Shown: positions 7,863 to 62,651 of the stretch, piece by piece
Layout: each line of letters begins with the position of its first letter
Position numbering within the stretch: the stretch's first letter is position 1
Assembly (NCBI GenBank): GCA_943356485.1
Contig: CALRFD010000003.1
Span: 7,702-71,701, forward strand
Origin: Patescibacteria group bacterium
Lineage (GTDB): Bacteria; Patescibacteriota; Microgenomatia; Daviesbacterales; UBA10151
Length of the DNA stretch: 64,000 nt
Reading direction: 5' to 3'
Notes under the pieces: model-generated
Told to the model about the DNA's origin: nothing
The model's database searches: none
Seen by the model: the letters and a program-made list of their open reading frames with translations, nothing else
Translations under genes and position numbers: made by a program

Positions 7863-8534
7863 ATGCCCTACAGAAAAACTGCCATTGTTTCTGGCGAGGT
7901 ATATCATATTTTTAATAGAGGAATAGCCGGGGCACCAATATTTTCAACTACTAAAGATTTCTTGCGCTTCCTAGACTTAATAAATTATTACCGTTTTAGA
8001 GATACCCCGGTAAGTTTTTCCCAATTTAAAAAGATAAAGAAAGAGGATAGAGAAAAAATTTTAAGCAATTTAGTGAAAGAAAATAACCCGCAAATAGAAA
8101 TATTAGCATTTTGTTTAATGGATAATCACTTTCATTTTCTTTTAAAACAAATTCTAGATAAGGGGATAGCCAAATTTGTCAGCAATTTACAAAATGGCTA
8201 TGCTAAATATTTTAATGTAAAAACTGAAAGGTATGGACCATTATTTCAGCCCATGTTTAAATCTGTAAGAGTTGTAAAAAACGAGCAACTTCTTCATGTT
8301 TCAAGATACATACATTTAAATCCATCTACAGGTTATTTAGTAGAAATAAAAGATTTAGAAGAATACCCTTGGACATCGCTATCCAGTTATCTTAAAGAAA
8401 ACTTAGAATATCCTTTTGTAAGTACGGAATTTATCCTGGAATTTATGAGTAGAAAGAAGTATAAAGAATTTATATATGATCAGGCAGAGTATCAAAGGGA
8501 GTTGGCAAATATTAGACATCTGACCTTTGAATAA
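7863..8534 (+). CDS. RayT-like HUH tyrosine transposase (IS200/IS605 TnpA superfamily, REP-associated), paralog 1
   Basis: HUH motif MDNHFHFLL, conserved N-terminus YHIFNRG, C-terminal VSRYIHLNPSTGY catalytic-Tyr region. 223 aa. About 45% identical by eye to the 41193-41858 paralog. Confidence 0.8.
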   Translation: MPYRKTAIVSGEVYHIFNRGIAGAPIFSTTKDFLRFLDLINYYRFRDTPVSFSQFKKIKKEDREKILSNLVKENNPQIEILAFCLMDNHFHFLLKQILDKGIAKFVSNLQNGYAKYFNVKTERYGPLFQPMFKSVRVVKNEQLLHVSRYIHLNPSTGYLVEIKDLEEYPWTSLSSYLKENLEYPFVSTEFILEFMSRKKYKEFIYDQAEYQRELANIRHLTFE

Positions 8535-22889: not shown

Positions 22890-24206
22890 ATGCCAAAAAC
22901 AATAGCAATCATCGGCGGAGGGGGAAGGGAGTCAGCACTGGTTGATGCATATGCAAGGAGTAAATCCGTTGCGAGGATTTTGGTTTTCCCGGGAAATGAT
23001 CTGATGCAGGCAAATACAAAGAAGCCGGTCAAAACCTACCCTTATATTAAAACCACAGATATCTCTAAAATTGTTGCCGAGTGCAAAAAAGAAAAAGTCT
23101 TTTTGGTTGATGTCGCGCAGGATAATGCGGTTGCCTCCGGGGCAGTGGATGAACTTAGCAAAGCTGGAATAATTGCAGTCGGACCAACAAAGCTAGCCGG
23201 TCAGATTGAATGGGATAAGGCTTGGGCTAGGGAGTTTGGTAAAAGAATTGGTTTGTCTCAGCCGGCATTAAAAATCTGCCGCTCAAAAAAAGAAGCCGAA
23301 GATTTTTTAAAGATCCAGAAGGATCAGGCCTGGTTTATTAAAGCTGCCGGTTTGGCTGAAGGTAAAGGAGTATTGCCTGCAAGAAATAATAAGGAAGCTT
23401 TGGAGAAGGTAGCGCAGATGCAAAACTTTGGGGTTGCCGGAGAAGTTTTTTTAATTGAGTCGTGGTTGGAAGGAGAGGAGTTTTCTACCTATGTTTTTTG
23501 TGACGGGAAAAATTATCAGATGGTTGGCAGTGCTCAGGATCATAAACGGATAAATGATTATGACGAAGGGGCAAACACCGGAGGTATGGGTTGCAGTAGC
23601 CCCCCGTTGGTATTAAGCAGGGAGCTTTTAAAGCTAGTCCAAACAGAGATTTTAGATAAGGTCATAAAAGGTTTGAGTGAGGAGAAAAGACCGTATAAAG
23701 GAGTTTTGTATCTAGGGGGGATGGTAGTGAAGCAAGGTGACCAGTTAAAGCCATATGTTATAGAATTTAACGCCCGCTGGGGTGATCCGGAAGCGCAAGT
23801 GATAGTACCGGGTATAAAAAATGACTTATTTGATATCAGCATGGCTATATACAAAGGTGATATTAGTAAATTGAAGATTAAAACAGATGGAAAAGCCCGG
23901 GTGGTGGTAGCCGGAGTTTCAAAAGGCTATCCGCTTGATTATTCAAAGGTTAAGGATAAGCAGGTTTTTGGTTTAGATGAAGCCGGGAAAATTTCCGGAG
24001 TAAAGATTTATGGAGCCGGAATAAAGGTTATAGATAATAAGCATTATGCCTCTGGCGGCAGATTATTTTATATTGTCGGGGAAGGGAAGACAGTTATTGA
24101 GGCCAGACAAAAGGCATATGAGGCGATGTCTTTGATTTTCGTTGAAGGCAATAACCTGCATTACCGGACAGATATCGGCTGGAGAGACGTGGAGAGATTA
24201 AGATAA
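22890..24206 (+). CDS. purD: Phosphoribosylamine--glycine ligase (GAR synthetase)
   Basis: N-terminal IAIIGGGGRESAL. ATP-grasp organisation. 438 aa. Confidence 0.9.
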   Translation: MPKTIAIIGGGGRESALVDAYARSKSVARILVFPGNDLMQANTKKPVKTYPYIKTTDISKIVAECKKEKVFLVDVAQDNAVASGAVDELSKAGIIAVGPTKLAGQIEWDKAWAREFGKRIGLSQPALKICRSKKEAEDFLKIQKDQAWFIKAAGLAEGKGVLPARNNKEALEKVAQMQNFGVAGEVFLIESWLEGEEFSTYVFCDGKNYQMVGSAQDHKRINDYDEGANTGGMGCSSPPLVLSRELLKLVQTEILDKVIKGLSEEKRPYKGVLYLGGMVVKQGDQLKPYVIEFNARWGDPEAQVIVPGIKNDLFDISMAIYKGDISKLKIKTDGKARVVVAGVSKGYPLDYSKVKDKQVFGLDEAGKISGVKIYGAGIKVIDNKHYASGGRLFYIVGEGKTVIEARQKAYEAMSLIFVEGNNLHYRTDIGWRDVERLR

Positions 24207-24309
24207 GAGGTTTGGTACTTGTTTGATTATTTATACTTTTGGGAAGAGCTATCAGTTGTTGCGGGTGAAACCAGTAGATGTAAGTGAATTTTTTAAAAAT
24301 CCGTCTCCA

Positions 24310-24330
24310 TTTTTTGCTCTGTTAAATAAG
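24310..24330 (+). repeat. 21-bp direct repeat TTTTTTGCTCTGTTAAATAAG, copy 1
   Basis: Perfect match to 30181-30201. Confidence 0.9.
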
Positions 24331-24348
24331 ATTGTAGTATTTCAAAAG

Positions 24349-24400
24349 GTCTAATCTCCCCAGGTGACCTATATTCTACACCCCCCAGGTGAGCTTATTT
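24349..24400 (+). repeat. REP-like family 2 copy (TCTAATCTCCCCAGGTGACCTATATTCTACACCCCCCAGGTGAGCTTA)
   Basis: Matches 31362-31412 over 48 bp with 3 mismatches. The core is shared with 41864-41898 and, inverted, with 41138-41170. Confidence 0.7.
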
Positions 24401-24432
24401 GCGGATTTAAGTTATATGCCATATACTTTTAA

Positions 24433-24732
24433 ATGAGCATGAATCCAGAAGCAACCTCACATTCTAATCCTGAACACCCAAAAGAATTAGCGTTAAGTCC
24501 TCAGGAAAAAAACAGGTTAATCGCTCATTTGGGAAGAGTGTATTCCAGAAGATATGATATTCAGGTTCTACCATCCCATGAACGTGGGGTTTGGGCTACT
24601 GGACTTGATCCAGAAACAAATATTGAGTTAGAGAAATATATGACTGGTCAAAGAGATAGCCTGGATGATTTGCCACCCGATGCTTTATCCCAAAAAAAAT
24701 TCTTTATGATGCAGAGTCAGCCCAGGGGATGA
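24433..24732 (+). CDS. N-terminal segment of the metallopeptidase/VWA protein, separated from the next ORF by a -1 frame change at an A8 tract
   Basis: The ORF ends 4 nt into the start of the 666-aa ORF. The downstream ORF's frame is open back to 24669, so one extra A in the 24692-24699 run fuses them: ...SQKK|ILYDAESAQGMSMDQ... Confidence 0.5.
   Translation: MSMNPEATSHSNPEHPKELALSPQEKNRLIAHLGRVYSRRYDIQVLPSHERGVWATGLDPETNIELEKYMTGQRDSLDDLPPDALSQKKFFMMQSQPRG
24693..24699 (+). other. A_AAA_AAA heptamer within an A8 run: candidate -1 programmed frameshift site or homopolymer indel
   Basis: In the ORF1 frame the codons are caA AAA AAA ttc. A -1 slip reads AAA AAA ATT CTT TAT and enters the HExxH-VWA ORF frame. 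Confidence 0.45.
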
Positions 24733-26729
24733 GTATGGATCAAATCTCTACTATTCTTCATCACGAAGCTGGTCATGCTAAATATACTGATTTCCGTTTA
24801 ATGATGGAGGGGCAAAAACAAGCTAAAGATGAAGGCTACCTGCCAACAAGTTTTTGGTTGATGTTTGAAGGAATAGAAGATCCAAGAGTCAATAGTTTAG
24901 AAGGCGAAGAGTCTCCGGCAATAGACCGCCAGATTAGAACTAACCAGGGGAAGGATCTGGAAGAAAGAATAACTGAAACACCCCTATCAAGCAGGCCGTT
25001 ATTATTACAATTTGCTTATAATTCTTCCCACTATTGGCTACACGGAAAAGGTATACCGGAGCTAGAGGATACTGATGTTGGCAGATTAGGTGAAGTTGCA
25101 AAGCCGTTACTGGAACAGTACTTTTTAAATACTGATGTAGACATAAGAAGGTTATTACAAAAACAAATTTGGGATATTGCAAAGGAGCTTGAAAAGAAAG
25201 ATATAGAAGATGAAGAAAAGCGTCAGATGGCTGAACGAAAACAAAGATCAAAACAGCAACAGGAAGAAGGACAATCAGGTGAGGGTCAATCCGGAACTCC
25301 CAATATCCCAGGAGGAGGAGAGCCGCGTCAGAATGCAGCTTCTGCGCAAGGAAGTAAACGTTTTATAGATCGTTTAAAGCAAGCAATCCTTGGTCGGCCA
25401 AATCAAAGTACATCTAACAACTCGGACAGTGGCTTTGAAAGTGACTCCTCGGAGGTGGGCGGCGAAGCAGGTCATCAAATTAGTAAGCCCTCCTTTGAAA
25501 AAAAACCAGAGAGGTTTGATCTGTCAAAACTCTCAGATGAAGAGCTCCAAGATATTAAAGATGCAATAGACCAGCTACCCCCTGAAGAACGCGCAGAACT
25601 TACTAAAGTAGCCAGAATAACTGTAGACGAAATACAAAAAGCAGCCCTGGAGGAAGAGCTGGGAAAAACAATGAAACTGGAGAGAAATAAAAAAACAGGT
25701 GAATATGAGATCAGACCGCAAACTGTAGATGAAAAAGCGCAAAAGCAGGCGGAGCATGATTATAAGGAGGCTTTATCGGAGGTTGAAGCAGAGGAGCAGG
25801 CTGAGTATGAAAGAGAAGAAGCAGAAAGAAGACATCAGGAAGGGTTACTTAAGCAATTGGAACAAGCCAGAAAAGAAAAAATAGAAATGGAAAAAGCAGG
25901 TTTTAATGAGGACGAGCAGGATAAATACTTACTTTACCAGTCCTTAGAAGATGCAATGTATTCCTATGTCAGAAATTTTAAACAAGCCATCGGAAGAATC
26001 ATTCCAAGAAGAAAAGAGCCAATATATGAAGGCGGTTATTTTAACGGGTCTAAGCTTGACAGAAGGGAGTTAATCCGCAAAGCTCCTTTGGGTGATGAGC
26101 AGTTTCATATGAGACAGGTAGAAAAACCAACCGGTGAACCCAGATTATTTATTGGGTTACTCATTGATAATAGCGGCTCAATGCAGGGAAGAAAAATGGA
26201 GGAGGCAAGAAAAGCTACAATCTTTTTTGCCAGGGTTTGTAAGGACATGGGTATTCCATTTATGGCAACTGCATTTGGAGATAAGGCAGAGGTTATAAAG
26301 GAATTCAGACAGGATTTTGATGACAGGTCTCAAAGAATAAAGCCTAAATTGATTGAAGCAACCGAAGCTCTTGGCGGAAGTACTAATCTTCATGCAGGAA
26401 TTAAGATGACTATTGAAGCTATGAATGAGCAAAGAAGAAGGCTTAGGGATTCTCATGGTTTAATCCTGGTTATTACAGACGGTGAAGCAAATAAGGGGCT
26501 TAGCGGAGATGCTCTAGGCGATTATATAAAAGAAAATCAAGGCAGACTCACCTTTAAAGGATTTGGACTATCAGCTGGGGAGCAGGAGAGAGCTAAGATT
26601 CAAACTTATTTAAACCTTTATTTTGGTGAAAGTAACTGCGCATATCCTGAAAACTTTGAGGATTTACCAGACGAAGCATTTAGACTGCTTCGGATTAACC
26701 TGATTCAGCTCCAAAGGTTCTTGTCATAA
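24729..26729 (+). CDS. HExxH metallopeptidase-like N-domain, acidic/coiled-coil linker and C-terminal von Willebrand factor A (MIDAS) domain protein (DUF2201/CoxE-like class)
   Basis: ILHHEAGHAKY (HExxH). EK/Q-rich low-complexity middle. VWA with MIDAS residues DNSGS...GGST...ITDGEAN. Confidence 0.7.
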   Translation: MSMDQISTILHHEAGHAKYTDFRLMMEGQKQAKDEGYLPTSFWLMFEGIEDPRVNSLEGEESPAIDRQIRTNQGKDLEERITETPLSSRPLLLQFAYNSSHYWLHGKGIPELEDTDVGRLGEVAKPLLEQYFLNTDVDIRRLLQKQIWDIAKELEKKDIEDEEKRQMAERKQRSKQQQEEGQSGEGQSGTPNIPGGGEPRQNAASAQGSKRFIDRLKQAILGRPNQSTSNNSDSGFESDSSEVGGEAGHQISKPSFEKKPERFDLSKLSDEELQDIKDAIDQLPPEERAELTKVARITVDEIQKAALEEELGKTMKLERNKKTGEYEIRPQTVDEKAQKQAEHDYKEALSEVEAEEQAEYEREEAERRHQEGLLKQLEQARKEKIEMEKAGFNEDEQDKYLLYQSLEDAMYSYVRNFKQAIGRIIPRRKEPIYEGGYFNGSKLDRRELIRKAPLGDEQFHMRQVEKPTGEPRLFIGLLIDNSGSMQGRKMEEARKATIFFARVCKDMGIPFMATAFGDKAEVIKEFRQDFDDRSQRIKPKLIEATEALGGSTNLHAGIKMTIEAMNEQRRRLRDSHGLILVITDGEANKGLSGDALGDYIKENQGRLTFKGFGLSAGEQERAKIQTYLNLYFGESNCAYPENFEDLPDEAFRLLRINLIQLQRFLS

Positions 26730-26804
26730 TTTTAACCTTAATGAAAGCCGCTAAAGCGTATTGAGAGATTGATTTATATTCAATAAATCTGGTACGTTAA
26801 ATAT

Positions 26805-29800
26805 ATGGCTGATAATAGCGGGGTAGAAAGAAATACCTATGAAGCAAGAAATTTATTGGCTCCCGGCAATCCAATTTCTCAACTTGTAGAAATACGGGAT
26901 TTAGGTACAGATAGATTTAGAGAGCAGTTTAAAGGTGAAGTTGTAGATGTTAAAAAAATAGGAGAAGTAGTTGCAATTTTAGAAAAGCAAAGTGATAAAT
27001 ATGAATTAGCTGTTTTCAATAAACAAGCTACACCGATAAGAGTTCCTCTTGATCCTACTGTAGTAGAAATTCTTGCTTCTTCCAGAGGAGATTATATAGA
27101 TGTTAGTTCTAAGCCTGATGTTTCTACAGAAAAATTGCAGAATATTTTAGGAAGGATGGGGTTTCACCTAAGAGATTTTAACCCGGTTGTAGAAACTTGG
27201 AGTGAATTATTCTTCAATTGTCGTTCGATTGGCTTCCCCGACCTTTATGTCAGGAGTCGTGTTTTAAATAGGGGAGCTAATATTAGTATACCAATGGGTG
27301 ATTGGAATCTGGAAGTAATGGAGGATCAAAATAAGCAGGCAACATTTGTTTTAGGAGTAGGTGGTAGCTATTTTGAAATGTACCCAAATGGACCGTTCAA
27401 AAAGCTTCCTCTTTCAGGGGAGGAGTTTGCGAAGCTAGAAGAGTTGGATAAAGATTTACCAGGAGATCTACAAATTGTGAAGGGTTATAATTTATTTCAT
27501 ATTACAAATAATACAGGACTCCAACAAGGATACTCTGGTTTGAGTCCTACTCAGGATCCCTCTAATCCTGGTATTTTATATTTTATAAATTCAGGTCAAG
27601 TTTACAGTTTGGATACTAAGGGTGTCCTGGATAGAACAACTTACCCTGTTTCTGAATCTCAGATTAAGATACAAGATCCTCAGGAGTTAGCGATTGATCC
27701 AAATGGGAATTTTTTAATTATTCGATCTTCTGATAATAAGCTGTCTATTGTCGATAAGGAAACAGGAGATATTGCCGAAGTTGTTGAAGATGTTAAAGGA
27801 TTTTTAACCGTTGATAAATTGGGGGGTATTGTTTACCTTGATACTCAAGATAAACTACGCGAAGTTCAGGCTAATTTTCAAACTATTCCTCCTGGAGGCA
27901 GTAAATTGCTACTAGAGAAAAAAGAGGCGCAGTTAAGAGAACAACAGGAAAGGTTTGCTAATTTAGAACTGGGAAAAGTAACGGGAAAAAGTCGGGCCGC
28001 AATATCAGAAGTAGATGTGGCTAATACTCTAAGAGAAACTATTTCAAGACAGGTTCTTGAACCTATCAATTCTGCAACAAATCCAGTAGTTTTAGAAGAT
28101 ATTTTAGATAGGCTGCAGGGATTAAAAGTAGATCCTGCCAATCAGGCATATCAGGAAGTTATTGATGAGTTTATTACTCAAGCAAGAGGTAAACTGAGTG
28201 GAATTAGAACTGCAGAATTTAGTACCCAACTTGACTCTTATAAACTGGCTTTAGATGAAGTTAAAAGCGTAGGTGATACTATTGGTTTGGATGAACAATT
28301 TGCCAGGATTTTAGAATTAAGGCAAAAACTTGATGTAGTTGATCCTCAACAAAGAAGAGAGGTTGAACAAAGATTGCGTACTCTTCAAACCCGGAAAGAC
28401 ACTTTGAATAATCAGTATCAGGGTGAGTTAATAGCAGCTGTAAACGAAGCTATACCTCAGATTGAACAACTGATAGAAGAAACCGGTTCGCCTCAGGAGC
28501 TTGCTTATTTTTCAACTTCAGTGCAAGCGCAACAGTTTGAAATGATGCTTGCCAATATTAGAGATCCACAAGTAAGAAAGGAGTTGCGTGATAAATATAG
28601 CGCAATGAGAACAAAGCAAAGAGGAAAATTAGAAGAGGGAAACAGACAGCTGGAAGAGCAGGACAGACAAAGATGGGCGCAAGTGGTAGATGAAGCCCGT
28701 GAGGATTTAGCTTCCTTGAGAGAACAGATTGAGCAATTATCAGACTCTGGTGAAGTAGACCGCTTTGGTAGAAATCCACTAGTAACAGCTTGGAGAGCTA
28801 AGCTTTTTGCCCTCCCTCCGGAATTAAGGGAAATAGAAGAAAAGAGATTAGAGATTATCCTAGGCGCCCGTAAAAAGGACATGGAGCATCGAAAAGAGTT
28901 AGGAGCGGTTGGTGAAACAGGGGAACTTAAGTTTGGAAATGCTACTTTTCCAATATTTAAAGAACCTCCAAGAATTTGGCAACCCAAGCTTTTACCAAGG
29001 CCAGGCGGTTTTGCGCAGTGGGCAGATTTAATATTTGAGGATTCTCAGGGAAAAATTTGGAGGCCGGCTAAGGATCACGATCTTATTGTCAGCACTGATT
29101 TAAATGATGAAAGGACCAGGATATTAATTGAGCAATATCATAAACAGGCGGATGAATATTTTAGAGGTATTAAAAGAAGAGTTCCTGAATTTGATGAGCA
29201 CTGGAGAATTACAGACTATAATATGGAAAAATTAGAAGAGGTGGTTGAAGCCTTAAATTTACAACTTGCCAACCATAGGGGAATTTTGATTATGCAGGGT
29301 GAGGCTGGTACAGGAAAAAATGTATTAGTGGATATGTTGGCTAATCTGTCTGATCGGGAAGTTATAACTGTTGCCTGTAATGAAAACAGTACGAAGGAAG
29401 ATCTAACATACGATTTTGATTATGATCCAAAAACGGGCACTGTCAGATGGCCTTCACGGCTTTTAGAAGGTTTACAAACTCCTGGCACAATTATCCTTTT
29501 TGATGAAATTAATGCTCTTAAACCAGGCATTTCGAAAATGTTAAATTCACTTTTCGATTATAGGAGAAGATTACTCTTTACCTCAGGAGGAACAGCAAAA
29601 GAAATTATTACTGATCCTACGGTTCTTTTCCTGGGTACTATGAATCCACAGAATTATGGTGGAGTAAACAGGTTATCCCCTGAAGTAAAATCCAGAGCCA
29701 GAGTAGTTGATATTGACTATCCGCCATTTGAGGTGGCAAGAAATGGGAGAACATATTACAGGAGTGATGAAGCAGAAATGTTAGCGGCTTATATGGATGG

Positions 29801-30167
29801 CCTCTCTGATTTTAAGCAGCCAGAAGTTAGGCAAATCTGGCATTACTTAATAAATAGAGATACGACAAATGGAGCAGACAGGATGCTATCGGGTAATCCT
29901 CAGATAGAAACAGATGTAAGGCGAGTATATGATGTCATAAGAGTGGCTAATAGACTTAGGGAGATGTATACCGCTTACCAAGTTGGTGATTCAAATGAAC
30001 CAATGGATTTTCCAACATCCTTGCGGGAAGTAACTGATATTGTTATGGAAATGAACCACCGCCAGGGTGTCAAACCAATGATTAAAAGGGTTATTGTTCC
30101 AAAGATAGATGATAGAAGGCAGAAAAAATTAGTTGAGCAAACCATAGATGCAGTTCTACCGGCTTAG
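26805..30167 (+). CDS. Giant MoxR-like AAA+ ATPase (AAA_5-type) with a roughly 800-aa N-terminal beta-rich plus coiled-coil extension
   Basis: Walker A GEAGTGKN, Walker B IILFDEIN, sensor-1 LGTMNPQN, MoxR-like LSPEVKSRARVV. Residues about 100-330 are beta-strand-like repeats and about 360-800 are heptad-rich. Confidence 0.7.
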   Translation: MADNSGVERNTYEARNLLAPGNPISQLVEIRDLGTDRFREQFKGEVVDVKKIGEVVAILEKQSDKYELAVFNKQATPIRVPLDPTVVEILASSRGDYIDVSSKPDVSTEKLQNILGRMGFHLRDFNPVVETWSELFFNCRSIGFPDLYVRSRVLNRGANISIPMGDWNLEVMEDQNKQATFVLGVGGSYFEMYPNGPFKKLPLSGEEFAKLEELDKDLPGDLQIVKGYNLFHITNNTGLQQGYSGLSPTQDPSNPGILYFINSGQVYSLDTKGVLDRTTYPVSESQIKIQDPQELAIDPNGNFLIIRSSDNKLSIVDKETGDIAEVVEDVKGFLTVDKLGGIVYLDTQDKLREVQANFQTIPPGGSKLLLEKKEAQLREQQERFANLELGKVTGKSRAAISEVDVANTLRETISRQVLEPINSATNPVVLEDILDRLQGLKVDPANQAYQEVIDEFITQARGKLSGIRTAEFSTQLDSYKLALDEVKSVGDTIGLDEQFARILELRQKLDVVDPQQRREVEQRLRTLQTRKDTLNNQYQGELIAAVNEAIPQIEQLIEETGSPQELAYFSTSVQAQQFEMMLANIRDPQVRKELRDKYSAMRTKQRGKLEEGNRQLEEQDRQRWAQVVDEAREDLASLREQIEQLSDSGEVDRFGRNPLVTAWRAKLFALPPELREIEEKRLEIILGARKKDMEHRKELGAVGETGELKFGNATFPIFKEPPRIWQPKLLPRPGGFAQWADLIFEDSQGKIWRPAKDHDLIVSTDLNDERTRILIEQYHKQADEYFRGIKRRVPEFDEHWRITDYNMEKLEEVVEALNLQLANHRGILIMQGEAGTGKNVLVDMLANLSDREVITVACNENSTKEDLTYDFDYDPKTGTVRWPSRLLEGLQTPGTIILFDEINALKPGISKMLNSLFDYRRRLLFTSGGTAKEIITDPTVLFLGTMNPQNYGGVNRLSPEVKSRARVVDIDYPPFEVARNGRTYYRSDEAEMLAAYMDGLSDFKQPEVRQIWHYLINRDTTNGADRMLSGNPQIETDVRRVYDVIRVANRLREMYTAYQVGDSNEPMDFPTSLREVTDIVMEMNHRQGVKPMIKRVIVPKIDDRRQKKLVEQTIDAVLPA

Positions 30168-41192: not shown

Positions 41193-41858
41193 ATGCCAGG
41201 GAGATTACTACCCTTAGTTACGAATGAAATATACCATATCTACAATAGGGGGATTAACCGGCAACCGACTTTTACAAATAAAAGAGAATGTGATAGGGCT
41301 ATTGAGACTATAAAATTTTATAGATTTGCTGATTTACCCTTAAGATTATCCAAATTTCTTTTACTTGAACAGAAGAAACAAAAGGAAACCGCTGAAAGTT
41401 TAGCTAAATCACTAGTAGAGATTCTTGCTTTTTGTTTGATGCCAAATCATTTTCATTTTTTGCTTCGGCAACAAGAAGACGGCGGTATTGCCACATTTAT
41501 AGGTAAGTTTCTAAATAGCTACACTCGATATTTTAATACTGTAAATAAGAGGGATGGTTCTCTATTCCTTGACCAGTTTAAAGCTGTTAGGGTGGAAACT
41601 GATGAACAACTGGTTCATGTTTCAAGGTATATCCATTTAAATCCATACACAGGTTATGTTATTAAGACTCTTGATGAGCTTCAATTATATCGATATTCTT
41701 CATTTAAGGATTACATTGATAATGATGAAACATTTGTTACAACAGACTTGATTCTAGGACTTTTTAAGGATAAAAATTTGTATAAGCAATTTGTTCTCGA
41801 TCAGGCAGATTATCAAAGAAGATTAAAGGACATTGAGCATCTTGCACTAGAGGCATGA
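41193..41858 (+). CDS. RayT-like HUH tyrosine transposase, paralog 2
   Basis: YHIYNRG, HUH motif MPNHFHFLL, VSRYIHLNPYTGY. 221 aa. Confidence 0.8.
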   Translation: MPGRLLPLVTNEIYHIYNRGINRQPTFTNKRECDRAIETIKFYRFADLPLRLSKFLLLEQKKQKETAESLAKSLVEILAFCLMPNHFHFLLRQQEDGGIATFIGKFLNSYTRYFNTVNKRDGSLFLDQFKAVRVETDEQLVHVSRYIHLNPYTGYVIKTLDELQLYRYSSFKDYIDNDETFVTTDLILGLFKDKNLYKQFVLDQADYQRRLKDIEHLALEA

Positions 41859-49241: not shown

Positions 49242-50219
49242 ATGGAAATTCTGGGGAAAATATTTAAAAAAGATGCAAAGACCTTTATTTCCGATTTTAC
49301 CCAGCATCTTATATATTCCCTTTTTATAGTGGCTCTGGCATCTTTTTTTACATTCTTTCTATTAAAAAAAGTGTTTAATCAAACTATCAATGATATTAGG
49401 CTAGATAATACGATCAGTGTGGTGAATAGTAAGAAAATAACCGGGATGCCTGTTTCTGATGGGGATTTATATACAGAAAGAGGCAGCCCATATGATAATC
49501 GAACAGTAGATGGGGCGACTGAAAGCGCCAAAGTTATTTTTCATGGCTCCAGGGATAAAAAGAAAATCGCGATCACTTTTGATGCCGAAATGACAGATGG
49601 TATGAAAGCCGCACTTTTATCGGGTAAAACCAAAAGCTCATATGATAAAAGGGTGACTGATATTTTAATTAAAACAAAAACTAAGGCAACCTTGTTTTTA
49701 ACCGGAATGTGGATTGAGCTGTATCCAAAAGACACGAAAGAGTTAGGAGCCAATCCGCTTTTTGAGCTAGGAAGCCATTCTTTTACAGACAGCTCTTATC
49801 ATGGTTTTTGCTACGGCTTAAAGCAGATTCCGCACACCCTGGCAATTGAAGAAATCGGCGCAACAGAAAAGCTTCTTCGGGAGCATGGTGGGATTGATAA
49901 CCGCTTATTCAGGTTTCCGGGGGGTTGCTACACTCCGGAGGATGTAAGGCTAGTTAATGAGGCGAACGATACGGTAGTACATTGGGATGTGGTTGGGGCT
50001 GATGGCTTTAATGAAAATGTATCGCAAATTGTCAGAAATGTTGTTGACAATACACAAAACGGCTCAATCATTGTTTTGCACATGAACGGAGCACCAACCG
50101 CTCCAAAAACAGCTGATGCTTTGCCCGAGATAATTTCTAAACTTAAGGCTAAGGGGTTTGAATTTGTTAAAGTATCAGAATTGCTAAATTTACCTCCAGA
50201 GCCGGCAGGGGGAAATTAA
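49242..50219 (+). CDS. Polysaccharide deacetylase (CE4/NodB homology) with N-terminal TM
   Basis: TFDAEMTDG ... ATLFLTGMW ... LGSHSFTDSS motifs. Confidence 0.7.
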   Translation: MEILGKIFKKDAKTFISDFTQHLIYSLFIVALASFFTFFLLKKVFNQTINDIRLDNTISVVNSKKITGMPVSDGDLYTERGSPYDNRTVDGATESAKVIFHGSRDKKKIAITFDAEMTDGMKAALLSGKTKSSYDKRVTDILIKTKTKATLFLTGMWIELYPKDTKELGANPLFELGSHSFTDSSYHGFCYGLKQIPHTLAIEEIGATEKLLREHGGIDNRLFRFPGGCYTPEDVRLVNEANDTVVHWDVVGADGFNENVSQIVRNVVDNTQNGSIIVLHMNGAPTAPKTADALPEIISKLKAKGFEFVKVSELLNLPPEPAGGN

Positions 50220-50430
50220 TAGTTCATTTTTTCTTCTCAAATGCTTCCATTTTCTTAAGAATTTGTAATATAAGCTGCTGTTGATTTTCCAGATGAAGCA
50301 AAATTGTCTCGATTTCTTTTTCTGCTTTGGTGTCAGTTTCAAAGTCATGCTGGGCTCTTAGTTCTGCATGTTTTGCCTGGATATTTTGACCTACCATAAT
50401 TAAAGGCATGAGATGAATTTGGATCAGGTT

Positions 50431-50688
50431 TCAAATAAATAGCCAGAGTACAAACGCAGGGAAAGGGTCAAAACGTAAATTAACAGGAGCAAACATATTC
50501 CAAAGCAACCAGGAAAAAGTCCATCCGGCAATAATAAAGAAAAATCCCATAGTACCTATCTTATTGGTTACCTGCAGAGCTAATTTATCCATCCCGGAAA
50601 GCTTTGACCGATGAATTTTATTAGTATCCTGCGGAGGGGTAAAGTTTTTCTTAAGGCTTTCCAGAGACTGCATGTTTAAATCCGGCAT
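50431..50688 (-). CDS. Small membrane hypothetical protein
   Basis: 85-aa ORF with a TM segment. Confidence 0.25.
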   Translation of the reverse strand: MPDLNMQSLESLKKNFTPPQDTNKIHRSKLSGMDKLALQVTNKIGTMGFFFIIAGWTFSWLLWNMFAPVNLRFDPFPAFVLWLFI

Positions 50689-50808
50689 TTTTTAAGTATA
50701 TCAAAAATGTTTGAGGTTTAATACGCCATATTATAACCAGATATGGTATAATTACCCACAAAATTACGGAAATGACCTTCCGTTTTTTAGAAAGTGTAAA
50801 AAAATATA

Positions 50809-51459
50809 ATGAAAGAAAAAGATCTAGTTTGTATTGAGTTTTCCTTAGGTATAAATATTCGTGGAAAAATTCCTTATCCATTTTTTAATTTCGAAATGAG
50901 AGGTGATACAAAATGTGAGGCAGTGGAGCGGTTTTCTCTTATTGATAACCGACTAAGAATGACTGAGGTTTTGGGATTAACCCCTGCCAGAACAGACCTG
51001 CTTAATCTTTATTTTATGTCAGGAGTCGCAAGGAGGGGTCCTTCAAAATTCGTTGCTTACTTGCAAAATCCTTTATTAATGTCAATGGCAGACAAGCCTA
51101 TTATTGGCCGGCTAATTTCTGGGATGCAAAATGTTCTGGATGATTATCATGATCTGTCGGTTGATTTAGAAGAAACAGCAGACCGCTGGGGATTACTAAT
51201 GCAGGAGAGTAGCGATATGAATTATAGAACCTTCATAGAAAAAGCCATGGAGGAAGAGGAGGATGAGGACTTTAAGGATTTGCTGGACGAAAAATTACTA
51301 GACGGTGAGCAACCAGAAATATTATCTACACCAGTCGGAGACCCAAGAGGCATTAAGAATATTGCACACTTGCTCTCGTCTATTTATTTAGATCCATATG
51401 CTACAGAGCAGGATATAGCCAATGTTTTAAGAAGTACAGCAATTAGATTTTTAAAGTAA
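50809..51459 (+). CDS. Hypothetical protein
   Basis: 216-aa ORF. Confidence 0.3.
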   Translation: MKEKDLVCIEFSLGINIRGKIPYPFFNFEMRGDTKCEAVERFSLIDNRLRMTEVLGLTPARTDLLNLYFMSGVARRGPSKFVAYLQNPLLMSMADKPIIGRLISGMQNVLDDYHDLSVDLEETADRWGLLMQESSDMNYRTFIEKAMEEEEDEDFKDLLDEKLLDGEQPEILSTPVGDPRGIKNIAHLLSSIYLDPYATEQDIANVLRSTAIRFLK

Positions 51460-51525
51460 GCCTCATTATTAGTGGTCGCAAATCCAAAGGGTATAAAAGA
51501 CATCATTGATTAGTGTGAGAATTTT

Positions 51526-52431
51526 TTATCCGGAAATAGAAGAAACATATTCCATTGGATCAAATAATTGTCTTAGATGGGTTGGTGGATTCTTTATCAA
51601 CAATGGTAATGCTAGAGAGACATAGAGTCCTGAACCGATCAGGTAATCCATAACTATATCTACAAAATTAGGACCCCAATTAATAGGTGTACGGGAGTAA
51701 GATAATACTCCAGAGTTTTTATGTCCTTCCTCCAATAGTCTTTGCTTTTTACTCATATTATTTTCATTTAAGACTTGCTGATAAAGTCTAAGTGAATTAA
51801 TAGCAAATTGCTCAAGTCCTATTAGATAGCTTTTGTAGCTATTTAACAGATAGGGGGCATTAGGTATTCCCTGAGCAAATTTTACCCTTCTTTGTATATC
51901 AGGGTCTTGGCCTCTTGACCTGTAAGATCTATCTATCACTTCAGATTTTCCCCACTCTGCAATTCCTTCATCAAATATACGCACAGTCATGTACTCTTCA
52001 ATTAACGTTAAGGCGCAGTGGCTATCAGCTGCTTGCTCAGCATAAAAAAGCTCACTAAAAGCCTGAGCTGCTTTTACTAGCCCGGGATTAGTTTGATACG
52101 TAAAAGCATGAATGTTTTCGTGTATTTCAGCCGCTTCTGAATGGAAATCATGAAGGTTGACAAGGTAGATATTATCCTCGGGAAAATACCGTCCACCTAC
52201 TTCTAATTGTCCCCTAAGTAAATCACTGTTCGACCTAGCAAGTTGCGTGTCAGGGAAGAAAAGAGTCATAAGCAATCGGTTAGGCAAGTTTAGCTCAATT
52301 TTAACAGGAGGTTGTGAAAATTTAATTCCTAATGTGTCTTCCACCATTTTTGCAACAGTATTGGGAGAAGTCGTGATTAATTTTAATGCAGCTTTTTGCC
52401 CAAATGTTTTTCCATCAAAAAACTTTTCCAT
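51526..52431 (-). CDS. Hypothetical protein with an HExxH-like HENIH segment
   Basis: Motif only. Confidence 0.3.
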   Translation of the reverse strand: MEKFFDGKTFGQKAALKLITTSPNTVAKMVEDTLGIKFSQPPVKIELNLPNRLLMTLFFPDTQLARSNSDLLRGQLEVGGRYFPEDNIYLVNLHDFHSEAAEIHENIHAFTYQTNPGLVKAAQAFSELFYAEQAADSHCALTLIEEYMTVRIFDEGIAEWGKSEVIDRSYRSRGQDPDIQRRVKFAQGIPNAPYLLNSYKSYLIGLEQFAINSLRLYQQVLNENNMSKKQRLLEEGHKNSGVLSYSRTPINWGPNFVDIVMDYLIGSGLYVSLALPLLIKNPPTHLRQLFDPMEYVSSISG

Positions 52432-52529
52432 AGTGATATTATACTAAAAAGATATCCTATAGTCAAATCAACTTCGCCTTAAGCCTTCTATTTACTTTAA
52501 GTGAGTAAAGTGATTTAATGTAGAAAGTT

Positions 52530-52943
52530 ATGTCAGTAGACAATCCTCAATTTGAAGGCCATACCGAAGAATATGCTCATACTCCGGAAGGTCAAGTACA
52601 GGCTAGCATTAGTCCTCCAACTTATTTCCAGGAATTAAAAAATTCTCTTACTGAAATCACGGCGGCTTTTGTAACCCCTCCTCCTTCCAGTTTAAGAGGA
52701 TTTGCTGCTTATATGGTACGTGATATCCCTTCAATAGCCTTAACTGCCGGTATGATAATCGGAGAAATTCCGGTTTTTGATTTAATTAACAGAACTCTTG
52801 ATTTAACTAATCCTGCAATAGTTAATTTTGAATATCTATCAATTCCTCTTTCTGTTTTTCCAATAGGTGTGCTAGCTGATAGATTAACCAGGAGATTAAG
52901 ACAGAGAATTGATTACTTGATCAATCCAAATCAACAAAAATAG
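52530..52943 (+). CDS. Hypothetical protein
   Basis: 137-aa ORF. Confidence 0.3.
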   Translation: MSVDNPQFEGHTEEYAHTPEGQVQASISPPTYFQELKNSLTEITAAFVTPPPSSLRGFAAYMVRDIPSIALTAGMIIGEIPVFDLINRTLDLTNPAIVNFEYLSIPLSVFPIGVLADRLTRRLRQRIDYLINPNQQK

Positions 52944-52960
52944 TATTTTCTTGAATACAT

Positions 52961-53572
52961 ATGCTATTATTAAGTAGGTATATGGCTAATAGTGAGTTAG
53001 GACAGCTATCTGGTATAAGAGAACTTACTTTAAACGACGTCACCGATTTACAAGTGGTTGCAGAAATATTAAATGACCCTGTAAATGCCATTCATTTTAC
53101 TGAAAGCGCTAAAGGGATTGAGGATTTACAACAATTAGTACAAAACCCTAATTACCATTTATTGGGAGCATATAATCTAGACCGAGAGATAGTTGGAACA
53201 CTCTCTGTGGTTGATGAATCTAGAGACGTCAATACTTATCTAATAGAAAAGACAGCTATACGCTCTGATATCCAAAATAGAGGTTTAGGTCGGGAGATGA
53301 TTGAAAAGGGAATTAAGTGGGCATTTGAGACTCCAACTAACCAAGAAAGAATGCGAAAAATATTAGTTCTATGGGTGCAAGAGGATTTGCCGGGATGGGA
53401 GAGAATGCAGGCTATAGTCTATCAAACTGGATTTTTGCAAGTGGTTAGAGAGCCTGATTTAGTAGTCAAGACAATTGATGGAATAGAAGTGGAAAAGCCC
53501 TCCGCGCGTTACCACCTTAGGCGTGAGCGATACGAAGAATTATCTATAAAAGGAAAATATAGAACTATTTAG
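52961..53572 (+). CDS. GNAT-family N-acetyltransferase
   Basis: Motif A QNRGLGREMI. Confidence 0.55.
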   Translation: MLLLSRYMANSELGQLSGIRELTLNDVTDLQVVAEILNDPVNAIHFTESAKGIEDLQQLVQNPNYHLLGAYNLDREIVGTLSVVDESRDVNTYLIEKTAIRSDIQNRGLGREMIEKGIKWAFETPTNQERMRKILVLWVQEDLPGWERMQAIVYQTGFLQVVREPDLVVKTIDGIEVEKPSARYHLRRERYEELSIKGKYRTI

Positions 53573-53625
53573 CCAGAGCTGGTTAAAATTACTAATTCTC
53601 TTTCCATTAAAAGCAATTCTGGCGA

Positions 53626-54837
53626 TCAACTTTTAGATATAGGTAAAGCGATAATCTGTCTTGCTCCAACTGTATCTGTCCTGTTTTGTAAGAAAACTGC
53701 TCCGCCGTAGCCTTCTTCGATATATCTTTGATGGGCACTCATACCTCTCCCTGTTCCAGAAACTATCTGATTGCTACTATCTTTAAAACCAGAATGTCCC
53801 CTTTGGTACCCATTTTTTAGATGATCATCATCAAATCCAATTGCATTATCTTCAACAATAATTAATAAATATTTTCGACCTGGATTGAGCACTTGCTTTT
53901 GATCCTCAGGAATAATTTGATCATCATCTTCTAATTTAGTAAACCTGACTGTAACCTGATTAGATTCACCGGTTTGGAGACTATACCCCTTTTTTAAAGC
54001 GAAAGCCTTTAGCGCGTTTGAGGCTAGGTTTTTAATAAGGGGCTTTAAGATAAATCTGGCATAATCTATGTCTAGATTGTTTAAATAATCATCCAATTCT
54101 TCTACCTCAAGCACTATACCTTGTTTTTCCAAATCACGCCTTAAATTTGCTTTAAATGCAGCGGCCAGGTACTCTGTCGAAACCTCTTCTTTAAAGAACT
54201 TCTCCCTTAAAATAAGGGGTGTTGTTTCATTAAGGTAAATATTTAGGGAATCCATAGATTCCCTAAGAAGATGAATGTTTTCTGCATCTGTTTCAGGAGT
54301 TGTAGTGCCGTTTTGACTGTCAGATTTCATAAAATCTATATTTGCCAATCCAACTAATGGATTTCCCAAATCATGGTGCACCATATTAGTTAACTTATCT
54401 ATGGCTAGATATAAATCATCAGGATCTTTTATTGTTAACTCAAGAGGAATAAGTCCTAAGGCTTTAAACTTCTTATTAATCGATCTCGCCTGAGCAGTTT
54501 GATGGATAGAGGCAATAGCTTCTCTCCTTTTTAAGTCTGCAACTGACCCTGTGGGTGGAATCTTTGTTTCAAATAACCCCATCTGATCGTAAATTAGTCT
54601 GAATTCATCCATCTCTGGTTCAAGTTGAAGATAGTCGTTCGTAGAACCGGAAATTGCCAGTGTACTAAAGCCTTTTTCAGCTATTGTTGTTCGATAGATA
54701 TTAAGAGCTTCCAGCATCGAATTAATATTCTCTGCAATGGGTTTTTGTTCCTTTGACAAGGCAATCTCTATGTTAAGATAAAGATATGGCCTGTCAATTA
54801 TTATTTCTGATTCAGGAACCAAGTCTGAACTAACCAT
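53626..54837 (-). CDS. Cytoplasmic sensor histidine kinase
   Basis: H-box VHHDLGNPL. HATPase G1/G2 regions VEDNAIGFDD and GTGRGMS. No TM segments. Confidence 0.7.
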   Translation of the reverse strand: MVSSDLVPESEIIIDRPYLYLNIEIALSKEQKPIAENINSMLEALNIYRTTIAEKGFSTLAISGSTNDYLQLEPEMDEFRLIYDQMGLFETKIPPTGSVADLKRREAIASIHQTAQARSINKKFKALGLIPLELTIKDPDDLYLAIDKLTNMVHHDLGNPLVGLANIDFMKSDSQNGTTTPETDAENIHLLRESMDSLNIYLNETTPLILREKFFKEEVSTEYLAAAFKANLRRDLEKQGIVLEVEELDDYLNNLDIDYARFILKPLIKNLASNALKAFALKKGYSLQTGESNQVTVRFTKLEDDDQIIPEDQKQVLNPGRKYLLIIVEDNAIGFDDDHLKNGYQRGHSGFKDSSNQIVSGTGRGMSAHQRYIEEGYGGAVFLQNRTDTVGARQIIALPISKS

Positions 54838-55246
54838 TTTGTTTAAGTATAGCCTTTATTTTAGCTTCGAGCCCTTTCATATCAGGTTTCATTACATAAC
54901 TATTTGCACCCTGATCAATATAGTGTATGCTACCTGAAGAATTACGGTTAGCCGTAAAAACTATGACAGGAGTTTTCTTAAAAGGAGAATCCTCACGCCT
55001 CATCCGTTCTAATAAGGACTCTACAAACCCATCCGGAAATTCAGTATCCAGAATAACTACTTTTGGTGGCAGTATTGGTTGCGAAAAAAGCATTTCCTTT
55101 GCTTCATTTAGCTTTTTGGCAACTCCTATTTGACCGGGTGTTATTCCTCCAAGTCCTAGGATAACGGCTCTTATCGCCATTGAGCTAAGCCTATTATTAT
55201 CAACTATCAACACTTTTAAGTCTTCCCTACGTTCCGGCATTGTCAT
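54830..55246 (-). CDS. Single-domain response regulator (REC only)
   Basis: LIVDNNR ... DTEFPDG (phospho-acceptor Asp context) ... K near the C-terminus. Overlaps the kinase gene. Confidence 0.75.
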   Translation of the reverse strand: MTMPERREDLKVLIVDNNRLSSMAIRAVILGLGGITPGQIGVAKKLNEAKEMLFSQPILPPKVVILDTEFPDGFVESLLERMRREDSPFKKTPVIVFTANRNSSGSIHYIDQGANSYVMKPDMKGLEAKIKAILKQNG

Positions 55247-55428
55247 AGAAATTTGTTTATTTAATCTTACAGGGAAAACCTAGTCAATTGCTAGTCTCTG
55301 ATCAATATCTCTATATGGTTCCAGATTATTCATCCAGATATATAATATGCTGAATTAAAAAGATGTCAAACTATATGGTCTAATGGGTGGGCAGATGAGT
55401 TTTCCAGGTGTTGTGCTAGAATATAAAA

Positions 55429-55767
55429 GTGATAATTACAAAATCTGAGCCTTTTACCCCAGATGAAATTGAAAAACTCAAAGAGGTGTTTGATGTTTAT
55501 ATTAAAACTGTAATTGATGTTCAAAAAAGGATCTGTACTGCGGGAATGGATAGACATTTTGAGGGGGAGAAAATCTTGCTAGAACAGGGTTCGAAGCAGT
55601 CAAGCATTTGGGGTGGGGGAGTAGATTTAGAAACAAAATCTGTAGATTTTAACTCTTTTATCAATATCCGGCCAAATGACAATAATACCAGCAACGAAAT
55701 TCAGGATGCTGAGATAAGAAAAGTCTACGAGGAGATAACCAGATTTTTCTTTAAGGAGGTCCTGTGA
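55429..55767 (+). CDS. Hypothetical protein (112 aa), first gene of a coupled pair
   Basis: GTG start. The stop overlaps the next ORF's start (ATGA). Confidence 0.35.
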   Translation: MIITKSEPFTPDEIEKLKEVFDVYIKTVIDVQKRICTAGMDRHFEGEKILLEQGSKQSSIWGGGVDLETKSVDFNSFINIRPNDNNTSNEIQDAEIRKVYEEITRFFFKEVL

Positions 55768-56033
55768 GCCAAAAAATCATCATTGAGTCATTGGCAATGG
55801 ATCTAAAAAGGGTGGCGTTGGGTTTACACAGAGGATCATTGGCAGTGGCAGAGAGGTTTAAGGAGGAGGCGGTCAAAAGGTCACAGGAGCTTGAAAAAAA
55901 TGATAGTCAGTATCTAACTAACCTGGTGGATAAAATGAGGGAGTGTTTAGCTCTGAATAGTGATAGATCTGCAGAAGATGCGTTAATGTATAGTATTTTA
56001 TTCCAAAACTACAGTTTGAAAAAGTATAAATAA
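55764..56033 (+). CDS. Hypothetical protein (89 aa), second gene of a coupled pair
   Basis: ORF only. Confidence 0.35.
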   Translation: MSQKIIIESLAMDLKRVALGLHRGSLAVAERFKEEAVKRSQELEKNDSQYLTNLVDKMRECLALNSDRSAEDALMYSILFQNYSLKKYK

Positions 56034-56091
56034 GGGGTGGGTGGGCAGATTATAATCCTGAGCAGGGCCTAAGGACTTAGTTTGTACTCAG
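56034..56091 (+). repeat. Dispersed repeat, copy R2 (GGGGTGGGTGGGCAGATTATAATCCTGAGCAGGGCCTAAGGACTTAGTTTGTACTCAG)
   Basis: Near-identical to 57663-57720 and 58477-58535. Confidence 0.8.
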
Positions 56092-56145
56092 TTGCAGGAA
56101 TTTAAACCCTTATTTATTATTCCTAACTATGCTACATTCTAGACT

Positions 56146-56781
56146 ATGAAAACATATGCCTTTATTGACGCTTCTAATCTCTTTTATGGTGGTGAGAAGA
56201 GTTTAGGGTGGAAAATAGACTATTCCAAACTAATTAAATATCTTAAAGAAAAATATGAAGTATCAGAGGTATATTATTTTGGTGGTGTTGAAACTCATGG
56301 ATATAAATATGATTATTTAAAAAATGAAACAGTTCCACTTAAGGAACTAAAAACTAGGTTAGATAAGTATATTGAAGAGCAGGGTAAAAGCTTAGATGAG
56401 GCAAAATTAATTCTATTTTCTAGGCACCTACAAAGAATAAAATTCTATCTTAAGCTACAGGAATTTGGATATAAACTCTACCTCAAACCTGTAAAGCTAT
56501 ATTATCAGCCAGATGGGAGTACTGAAAGAAAAGCAAATTGTGATGTTGAAATGGCTTTTTATTTGATGAAAGAAAAGGATAGTTTTGAGAGGGTTGTTGT
56601 TATGTCTGGGGATGGAGATTTTTTGCCCTTGCTAAAGTACCTCAGGGAAACTGGTAAAGATGTAATCGTCTTAGCGAGGAGTCCTCGCACTGCTAGAGAA
56701 ATAAGGCAGTTTGCTGGAAGCGACTTTAAAGACTTTGAATATTTAAGGGAAATACTAAAAATGAAAGAGGAAAAGACATAA
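56146..56781 (+). CDS. NYN/LabA-like (PIN-fold) ribonuclease-domain protein
   Basis: AFIDASNLFYG ... VVVMSGDGDFLPLLKYL acidic-residue pattern of NYN domains. Confidence 0.6.
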   Translation: MKTYAFIDASNLFYGGEKSLGWKIDYSKLIKYLKEKYEVSEVYYFGGVETHGYKYDYLKNETVPLKELKTRLDKYIEEQGKSLDEAKLILFSRHLQRIKFYLKLQEFGYKLYLKPVKLYYQPDGSTERKANCDVEMAFYLMKEKDSFERVVVMSGDGDFLPLLKYLRETGKDVIVLARSPRTAREIRQFAGSDFKDFEYLREILKMKEEKT

Positions 56782-56805
56782 AAAACGGGAAGACTCATAT
56801 AGAAT

Positions 56806-56920
56806 CTCCCCGATGTTTAGTAAAAGTATTATACCACACTTGTATCAAAAACTCATCTCTAAATCAGAATACGTAATTTTGCGTGGGTGGGTGGCAGACC
56901 TCCTTTGTACCCAAATGAGA
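56806..56920 (+). repeat. Dispersed repeat, copy R3 (extended 5' arm; internal deletion of the TATAATCCTGAGCAGGGCCGAAGG segment)
   Basis: CCCCGATG...GTATTATACCACACTTGTATCAAAAACTCATCTCTAAATCAGAATACGTAATTTTGCGTGGGTGGGTGG matches 58398-58487. Confidence 0.8.
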
Positions 56921-56946
56921 GAAATAATAGTAAAGTTTCTTTAATA

Positions 56947-57615
56947 TTAGTAGAGTCTTTTTAATAAAGCTAATGGGTCAATAGAATTGTTTATATCAGT
57001 ACCTAATCTGTGAAAATCGGGTTGATAATGTATTTCAAAATGAACATGGTTATAACTTCTTTCATAAGTTTCTTCAACTTTTGGTGGAATTTCTACACTT
57101 GGATGTAGTCCTCCAGCTTCACCCTTAAAGAATAATCCAACTTGTCCAATTCTTTCCCCTCTTTGGAACCTCTCTTCTGAGTATCTGTCGAACCAATGCC
57201 TTTGGGCTATTGTAGGATGTAAACTATCTAAGTCTAGATGTACTAGCCAATATGCTAACCCAGATTCTTGAGAATAAAGTAAAACATCAGCTAAGCCTCG
57301 GTGTCTGTTGATATAGGTTTGTGCATCTTTATAAACAAAGGTAGCAGTTTCTGGTGTTGCAACGCAGGTCCCTTCAGGAACTTGAATATCTAGGGCAAAA
57401 TGTGGGTCTTTATCCTTTGAAGCAGAATAATTTGGTTGTCCAAAAAAGCAAGAAATATGAGCCCGAAGACTTGTCATATCAACTGGCCAATCGAGAGTAT
57501 GTCTTAGTGGAGTTAAAGCTTCTGGTAAGGTTCGCTTACTTACGTGCTCTAAATAGAAGGCTTCGTCGGTAGGAAAACCCTCACCGCTTTTACGAATTGG
57601 TTGTAATTCAGACAT
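56947..57615 (-). CDS. M23-family (LytM-like) metallopeptidase-domain protein without signal peptide
   Basis: HFALDIQVPEGTCVATPETATFVY (HxxxD block), AYWLVHLD, GERIGQVG, HVHFEIH (HxH). The N-terminus is not hydrophobic. Confidence 0.6.
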   Translation of the reverse strand: MSELQPIRKSGEGFPTDEAFYLEHVSKRTLPEALTPLRHTLDWPVDMTSLRAHISCFFGQPNYSASKDKDPHFALDIQVPEGTCVATPETATFVYKDAQTYINRHRGLADVLLYSQESGLAYWLVHLDLDSLHPTIAQRHWFDRYSEERFQRGERIGQVGLFFKGEAGGLHPSVEIPPKVEETYERSYNHVHFEIHYQPDFHRLGTDINNSIDPLALLKRLY

Positions 57616-57662
57616 TTAAATATCTTAACACTTTTATGCCTGAATATCAAACTATAGGACTG

Positions 57663-57720
57663 GGGGTGGGTGGGCTGATTATAATCCTGAGCAGGGCCGA
57701 AGGACTTAGTTTGTACTCAG
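57663..57720 (+). repeat. Dispersed repeat, copy R4
   Basis: GGGGGTGGGTGGGCTGATTATAATCCTGAGCAGGGCCGAAGGACTTAGTTTGTACTCAG. Confidence 0.8.
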
Positions 57721-57766
57721 ATAAGCTCAAATTCTATAAATATTTCTTCTATGCTATAGTCTAGTT

Positions 57767-58339: not shown

Positions 58340-58397
58340 AGCGAGGCCAGTTATTCAAGTAGTTTATTGCTAAACTCGGCGGCTCACCGTCCTTTGT

Positions 58398-58535: not shown

Positions 58536-58544
58536 ATAAAATTA

Positions 58545-59075: not shown

Positions 59076-59130
59076 AATTACAAACTACAGGTATAAGAAA
59101 TGAGATATTTTAGAGTAAATATGTATACTA

Positions 59131-59207: not shown

Positions 59208-59290
59208 TGTAATCCCAAACCTGATTTTATCACAGACAAATTTTAAAAACCATCTGAAGCCAGCACAAAAAAATACTCTACACTTTTTTG

Positions 59291-60112: not shown

Positions 60113-60138
60113 CTATAGGACAGGATTTGATCCTGCAA

Positions 60139-62644: not shown

Positions 62645-62651
62645 ACTCACT

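Follow-up and report, generated by a model that had tools for sequence, protein, structure and literature searches.

A T3 run upstream of a bystander A8 tract splits a conserved HExxH-VWA gene in the record of a Microgenomates genome

The window analysed here is a stretch of 64,000 nucleotides from a Patescibacteria group bacterium (NCBI GenBank assembly GCA_943356485.1, contig CALRFD010000003.1, positions 7,702 to 71,701 of the forward strand). On its plus strand lie two open reading frames, here called ORF-A and ORF-B, which overlap by the sequence ATGA and are followed by a gene for a large ATPase. The features of the locus are as follows.

24433..26729, plus strand: full gene for a protein of ~765 aa with an HExxH domain and a VWA/MIDAS domain (from ~75 homologues and an intact 763-aa allele)
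24433..24732, plus strand: ORF-A, 99 aa, N-terminal fragment of the gene (from the ORF list and frame analysis)
24669..24732, plus strand: 64 nt in which both frames are open (from frame analysis)
24684..24686, plus strand: T3 run, the actual frame-break site (from comparison with an identical-strain contig)
24692..24699, plus strand: A8 run, a bystander (same length in both alleles, missing in orthologues)
24729..26729, plus strand: ORF-B, 666 aa, remainder of the gene (from the ORF list, Pfam and a structure model)
26805..30167, plus strand: partner gene, 1120 aa, AAA_5 (MoxR/dynein-class) ATPase domain at the C terminus (PF07728, E = 1.5e-21; tblastn synteny)

ORF-B is in the -1 frame relative to ORF-A and its frame is open back to 24669; any single -1/+2 event within 24669..24732 gives the full-length product again. 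The A8 run, as read from the window sequence, stands in the context GATGCTTTATCCCAAAAAAAATTCTTTATGATG. The codons of ORF-A run TCC CAA AAA AAA TTC, which puts the heptamer A_AAA_AAA (24693-24699) in phase, and a -1 slip on it, or one added A, yields a continuous 765-aa product that reads DALSQKKILYDAESAQGMSMDQISTILHHEAGH at the junction. A preliminary description of this locus had reported the A8 run, the 99-aa ORF, the -1 frame open to 24669 and the heptamer in phase, together with a continuous protein of ~765 aa after a slip or an A insertion; the sequence facts were all correct, and translation confirmed the length of 765 aa. ORF-A is in the true frame only as far as the T run, and its last 15 codons (LSQKKFFMMQSQPRG, then the stop) are out-of-frame read-through. 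In the intact frame, A8 is read as CCA AAA AAA ATT (Pro-Lys-Lys-Ile). In the ENA gene call, the start is the ATG at 24439 and the protein has 763 aa; in the intact protein, the ATG of ORF-B is an internal Met codon within the conserved segment AQGMSMDQ.

A search with the fused sequence returned 78 proteins, most of them from CPR bacteria of the Microgenomates type (Curtissbacteria, Daviesbacteria and the 'Microgenomates group'). About 70 of these are single proteins of 690-900 aa, nearly all of which cover 97-100% of the fused query, and ~75 homologues span the junction unsplit. According to the BLASTP start and end positions, only the 666-aa protein of the window itself begins at query residue 98. 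The 99-aa ORF, used alone as query, matched only itself and a 107-aa contig-end fragment, and the latter also reads through the junction (EAFIPKQIIYDEPSAQ). The N-terminal alignment is gapless over the junction, with the consensus TLDDLPPESF.PKQILYDE..AQEMSM.EI.TILHHEAGH; at the break the family consensus is [SA]F.P[KR]QILYD, where F83 and P85 each reach a conservation of at least 90%. The gene was also read as DNA in five loci from GTDB species representatives, where it forms one tblastn HSP in a single frame. At the site corresponding to A8, two Curtissbacteria have CCT AAA CAG ATT, a Daviesbacteria locus has CCA GAA CAA ATA, and the remaining loci have CCG AAG CGA ATC and GCA AAA CAA ATT; a homopolymer or an X_XXY_YYZ motif occurred at this site in none of the five. 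The alignment of orthologues, which the preliminary description had proposed as a way to see whether the two ORFs are fused elsewhere, gives a clear answer: they are fused in ~75 homologues and in the five loci. By this comparison of sequences, ORF-A and ORF-B are a single conserved gene.

ORF-B contains the HExxH helix (HEAGH) and a helical domain, as well as a linker (low-complexity/coiled-coil) and, at the C-terminal end, a VWA/MIDAS domain. The VWA domain, at residues 575-711, was found with PF13519 (E = 3.6e-10) and PF00092 (E = 2.1e-9), and its structure is closest to the VWA domain of NorD in the NorQD complex and to the MIDAS domain of Rea1/MDN1 (Foldseek E ~1e-7). In the HExxH domain, H109, E110 and H113 are invariant in the family alignment. 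The best Pfam match of this domain is M48 at E = 0.16, below the cut-off, and its best meaningful Foldseek match is the minigluzincin selecase, at a probability of at most 0.75 and a non-significant E of ~1; it is plausible that the domain is a zincin. AlphaFold modelled the intact protein with pLDDT 81 and residues 1-278 alone with pLDDT 86 and pTM 0.78. Both models have a helix at 21-36, strands at 42-45, 53-55 and 87-90, the HExxH helix at 100-116 and a helical bundle to ~276. In the models the strands and the HExxH helix form a single compact domain, and the break, at residue 83, is predicted to cut through it between the small sheet and the HExxH helix. ORF-B as an independently evolved gene was rejected, since it begins at what is an internal Met codon of the intact protein and the break falls inside one predicted domain. 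Among the hits seen, the HExxH-VWA family appears confined to Microgenomates-type CPR bacteria.

The AAA_5 gene lies directly downstream of the HExxH-VWA gene in all five orthologous loci, its copy in one of them being truncated by the end of the locus (L007). A VWA/MIDAS protein is hence found beside an AAA_5/MoxR-class ATPase, as in pairs of MoxR-class AAA+ and VWA proteins, and the two genes look like a MoxR-class ATPase with its VWA/MIDAS partner. In PADLOC, neither of the two proteins had a meaningful match to a defence system, NCBIfam gave sub-threshold matches only, and a profile search of PDB sequences gave one marginal VWA match only.

The 90%-identity cluster of ORF-B has a second member, P0079, a 763-aa protein encoded on contig k141_195454 (80.8 kb) of the ENA assembly ERZ27280317. 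A locus of 22,292 bp from this contig (L001) aligned to positions 14439-36729 of the window with 0 mismatches and exactly one gap. The gap is one T, with GATGCTTTTATCCCAAAAAAAATT in L001 and GATGCTTTATCCCAAAAAAAATT in the window: at 24684-24686 the window reads T3 (GATGCTTTATCCC), and the contig of the identical strain reads T4 (GATGCTTTTATCCC). The site lies 5 nt upstream of A8, and A8 has the same length in both alleles. The T4 allele is one ORF of 763/765 aa with the junction DDLPPDAFIPKKILYD (DAFIPKKILYD). It reproduces Phe83 and Pro85 of the family, both of which are replaced in the A8 slip product, DALSQKKILYD. Thus, the frame-breaking lesion is one T lost from T4, not a change in A8. 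Because A8 is identical in the intact allele, a deletion from A9 to A8 was rejected as the lesion. The proposal that the two ORFs are joined at A8 is upheld insofar as they are one gene and a frame change within 24669-24732 restores ~765 aa; A8, being the same in the intact allele, is neither the place nor the mechanism of the joining.

The comparison was extended with three further pieces of k141_195454, so that it comprised L012 (window 1-20634), L001, L003 (window 36968-58200) and L014 (window 50139-64000). Over 1-36729 and 36968-64000 (~63.8 kb), the contig equals the window save at two positions. The second difference is C in the window versus G in ENA at 50432; on the minus strand it changes TCA (Ser81) to TGA in the window version of a 149-aa DUF1003 gene. 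The nonsense share of random coding substitutions, computed for the window, is 5.0%. Both differences disrupt genes in the window record, and none damages the ENA contig. About 90 homopolymers (A/T runs of 7 or more, G/C runs of 6 or more) showed zero length differences from the ENA contig wherever compared.

Other records were sought in several ways. An exact-pattern scan of JGI metagenome contigs found neither the T3 nor the T4 allele. None of the other assemblies found extended across the junction; a Logan contig (L006) stops at window position 24444, ~240 nt short of it. A look-up with the AAA_5 protein led to the same ENA contig only. Among the assemblies found, no third one covered 50432, contig L016 of ERZ27280321 being expected, by coordinate arithmetic, to stop ~44 nt short. 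A literature search on the run accession ERR5863124, concerning the sequencing platform, found no papers. Among the records searched, one NCBI-derived record alone had the T3 allele and the two products of 99 aa and 666 aa.

The A8 run was also examined as a slippery site. A heptamer of the dnaX/IS3 type, A_AAA_AAA, is present and is in phase with ORF-A. The window has 38% GC and contains 44 A7 and 41 T7 heptamer positions; 18 in-phase A_AAA_AAA heptamers lie inside its intact ORFs of at least 200 aa, and any A8 run is in phase in two of the three frames. The position of A8 inside the 64-nt doubly open stretch is a mild coincidence, as ~0.5% of the 64-nt stretches of the window hold one. The motif is therefore statistically unremarkable here. 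Downstream of the run, the 101 nt at 24700-24800 folded at -18.3 kcal/mol; shuffled sequences averaged -20.2 kcal/mol (z = +0.62), and 144 of the 200 folded as well as the native sequence. SD-like elements (GGAG, GAGG, AGGA, AGGG or GGGG) were absent from the 32 nt ending with the first A of the run. Scanned for promoters and terminators, positions 24150-26900 gave fewer sites than shuffles and no separate expression signals for ORF-B. The split is absent from the homologues, the five loci and the identical strain, the five loci have no A run at the site, and the trans-frame product does not match the conserved protein sequence (DALSQKKILYD versus DAFIPKKILYD). All defining features of a dnaX/IS3-type site fail except the presence of the heptamer. 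A8 only codes for two lysines; it is no signal for programmed frameshifting.

The question is then how the window came to carry T3. In the explanation that we prefer, the loss of one T from T4 would have left T3 at 24684-24686 and shifted the frame five bases before A8. Translation from the native start would stop at the TGA at 24730-24732 and yield the 99-aa fragment, and the other 666 codons would be left in the -1 frame. T3 would be a very recent loss-of-function allele of the strain, an incipient pseudogene rather than a recoding device, and we give this explanation about an even chance. ORF-A alone is a 99-aa stub with 15 residues out of frame and ORF-B alone is without ~85 strongly conserved residues, so that the truncated products would be non-functional unless the frame is restored. 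The competing explanation of comparable weight is that an assembly, consensus or polishing error recorded T4 as T3 and that the gene is intact in the organism. This is a serious contender, although we hold it to be somewhat less probable. It agrees with the independent assembly of the same strain, which has T4 and an intact ORF with 100% identity elsewhere over 22 kb, with the run-rich context T4-A-T-C3-A8-T2, with the restriction of T3 products to one record, and with the fact that both differences damage genes in the window record and none in the ENA contig. However, T4 is a short homopolymer, the ~90 long homopolymers are as long in the ENA contig at every place compared, and the other difference is a transversion, atypical of consensus errors. 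The equality of the long homopolymers indicates that the assembly is not generally indel-prone, and the C/G transversion, which is not a homopolymer-type miscall, suggests that the two assemblies are slightly different genotypes. On the other side, two gene-disrupting differences are unlikely under any simple model, given the 5.0% nonsense share, and could equally mean a consensus of lower quality, and a consensus or polishing error is conceivable in the low-complexity context TTTTATCCCAAAAAAAATT. Taken together, we lean slightly towards a real recent allele over an artefact, and we infer that the one-T deletion is a real genotype rather than a consensus error. The preliminary description had listed a pseudogenising indel and a sequencing error among its options. 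Both survive and were right in kind; the place was wrong, being the T run and not A8.

If T3 is real, the gene might be partly rescued by an occasional -1 slip on A_AAA_AAA or by insertion of an A by RNA polymerase in A8. In bacteria, low-level slippage is known at A-rich heptamers and at runs of 8-9 or more A, and here the heptamer is in phase within a doubly open stretch and the slip product is a continuous protein of 765 aa. However, there is no downstream stimulatory structure (z = +0.62) and no upstream SD-like element, the efficiency is expected to be low, and the product carries F83L, I84S and P85Q, losing two nearly invariant residues (F83 and P85). RNA polymerase slippage, which leaves heterogeneous transcripts, usually takes an A or T run of at least 9; the run here is A8. 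We regard such rescue as improbable; if real, it would be accidental phenotypic suppression and not an evolved signal. Homopolymer length as a switch that turns the gene on and off, in a phase-variable contingency locus, is less probable still. The two alleles do differ by one homopolymer base in near-identical genomes, and the preliminary description had counted a phase-variable homopolymer among its possibilities. However, A8 is invariant, the only length difference is T3 versus T4, and the orthologues have no repeat at the site. Phase-variable tracts with high slippage rates are usually at least 7-8 long, and the variable tract here is far shorter. Least probable is programmed -1 ribosomal frameshifting of the dnaX or IS3 OrfAB type, in which two evolved ORFs would give a short and a long product. 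The in-phase A_AAA_AAA, the ATGA overlap and the downstream ORF in the -1 frame had made it attractive, but the same strain has an unbroken ORF that contains an identical A8, the gene is unsplit in ~75 homologues and in five orthologous loci, the heptamer occurs in 0 of the 5 loci, and 18 such heptamers lie within intact genes of the window. Downstream structure and an upstream SD are both lacking, and the slip product mismatches the conserved sequence, which insertion of a T reproduces. The preliminary description had named, as evidence against this explanation, orthologues that keep two separate ORFs and no conserved slippery site; the finding is stronger, since the orthologues are single unbroken ORFs with no slippery site at the position. 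Programmed -1 frameshifting is effectively refuted.

In AT-rich genomes, an in-phase A_AAA_AAA beside a split gene is easily misread as programmed frameshifting, which calls for caution. In the present case, the near-identical contig and the orthologues reveal the true lesion, a T deletion a few bases upstream of A8. In the record, the gene should be marked as frameshifted or as a pseudogene, or the sequence corrected, and the right representative of the HExxH-VWA family is the intact 763-aa sequence. This family, conserved in Microgenomates beside a giant AAA_5 ATPase, is the more interesting object, independently of the split. Rescue at A8, if true, would give a natural case, in a CPR bacterium, of a slippery run that softens the effect of a frameshift mutation close by.

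Compared with dnaX and IS3 OrfAB, the locus shares the in-phase A_AAA_AAA heptamer and the downstream ORF in the -1 frame. In those systems, however, A_AAA_AAG or A_AAA_AAA is accompanied by an SD-like element upstream, a hairpin downstream, or both, whereas no stimulators are found here. Unlike in dnaX and IS3 OrfAB, neither the heptamer nor the split is conserved, the relatives need no frameshift, and the slip product conflicts with the conserved protein sequence. The locus is an ordinary frameshifted gene. It matches a recent pseudogene or a consensus indel in a metagenome-assembled CPR/Microgenomates genome, with a 1-nt deletion in a short homopolymer, two overlapping ORFs, an intact allele on an otherwise identical contig and intact orthologues, and nothing essential differs; the sole oddity is that an A8 run resembling a slippery site lies 5 nt downstream. 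The gene pair, for its part, has the VWA match and the conserved adjoining ATPase in common with NorQ/NorD, CbbQ/CbbO, RavA/ViaA and the AAA ring and MIDAS domain of Rea1/MDN1. Unlike in those pairs, the VWA protein here has a family-specific N-terminal HExxH domain without a Pfam model, and the ATPase, at 1120 aa, has a long N-terminal region without a Pfam or NCBIfam match.

The gene encoding the HExxH-VWA protein and the AAA_5 ATPase gene that follows it form a conserved unit:

24433-30167, plus strand, with five orthologous loci (L007-L011): two-gene unit conserved in Microgenomates-type CPR bacteria

The product of the first gene is composed of the HExxH domain, a long charged linker and a VWA/MIDAS domain. 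The HExxH domain is without a Pfam model and gave no significant fold match in the PDB. The second gene product (1120 aa) carries the AAA_5 ATPase domain at its C-terminal end, and its long N-terminal region matched no family in Pfam or NCBIfam. One orthologue of the gene pair (53% identical) is located on CAYHKI010000003.1 (locus L010), the record title of which is 'uncultured Gammaproteobacteria bacterium'. Since the remaining named matches are all CPR/Microgenomates, this bin may be mislabelled or contaminated.

In the near-identical ENA contig, a run of four T residues (T4; T3 in the window) leaves the HExxH-VWA gene intact. In the intact frame, too, A_AAA_AAA is in phase at 24692-24698, read as CC[A AAA AAA], and a -1 slip on the A8 run would lead to a stop after ..PKKNSL*, yielding a 92-aa product. 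The in-phase heptamer of the T4 allele is not conserved in the orthologues, and so both it and the slip product are presumably meaningless.

Besides T3/T4, a single mismatch remained in the comparison with the ENA contig:

50224-50673, minus strand: DUF1003 (PF06210) gene, 149 aa, with a substitution at 50432

Position 50432 is C in the window whereas it is G in the ENA contig, and C converts Ser81 (TCA) to a TGA stop. Therefore, both differences between the assemblies are gene-disrupting in the window's record.

Secondary BLAST hits between L003, a piece of the ENA contig, and the window revealed repeated short segments (60-80 bp, about 96% identity) at about 58413-58539. The window also contains two transposase genes:

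7863-8534, plus strand: first Y1_Tnp gene (IS200/IS605-type TnpA, PF01797)
41193-41858, plus strand: second Y1_Tnp gene (IS200/IS605-type TnpA, PF01797)

Because their products are only 45% identical, the two are, judged by protein sequence, distinct elements rather than copies of one element.
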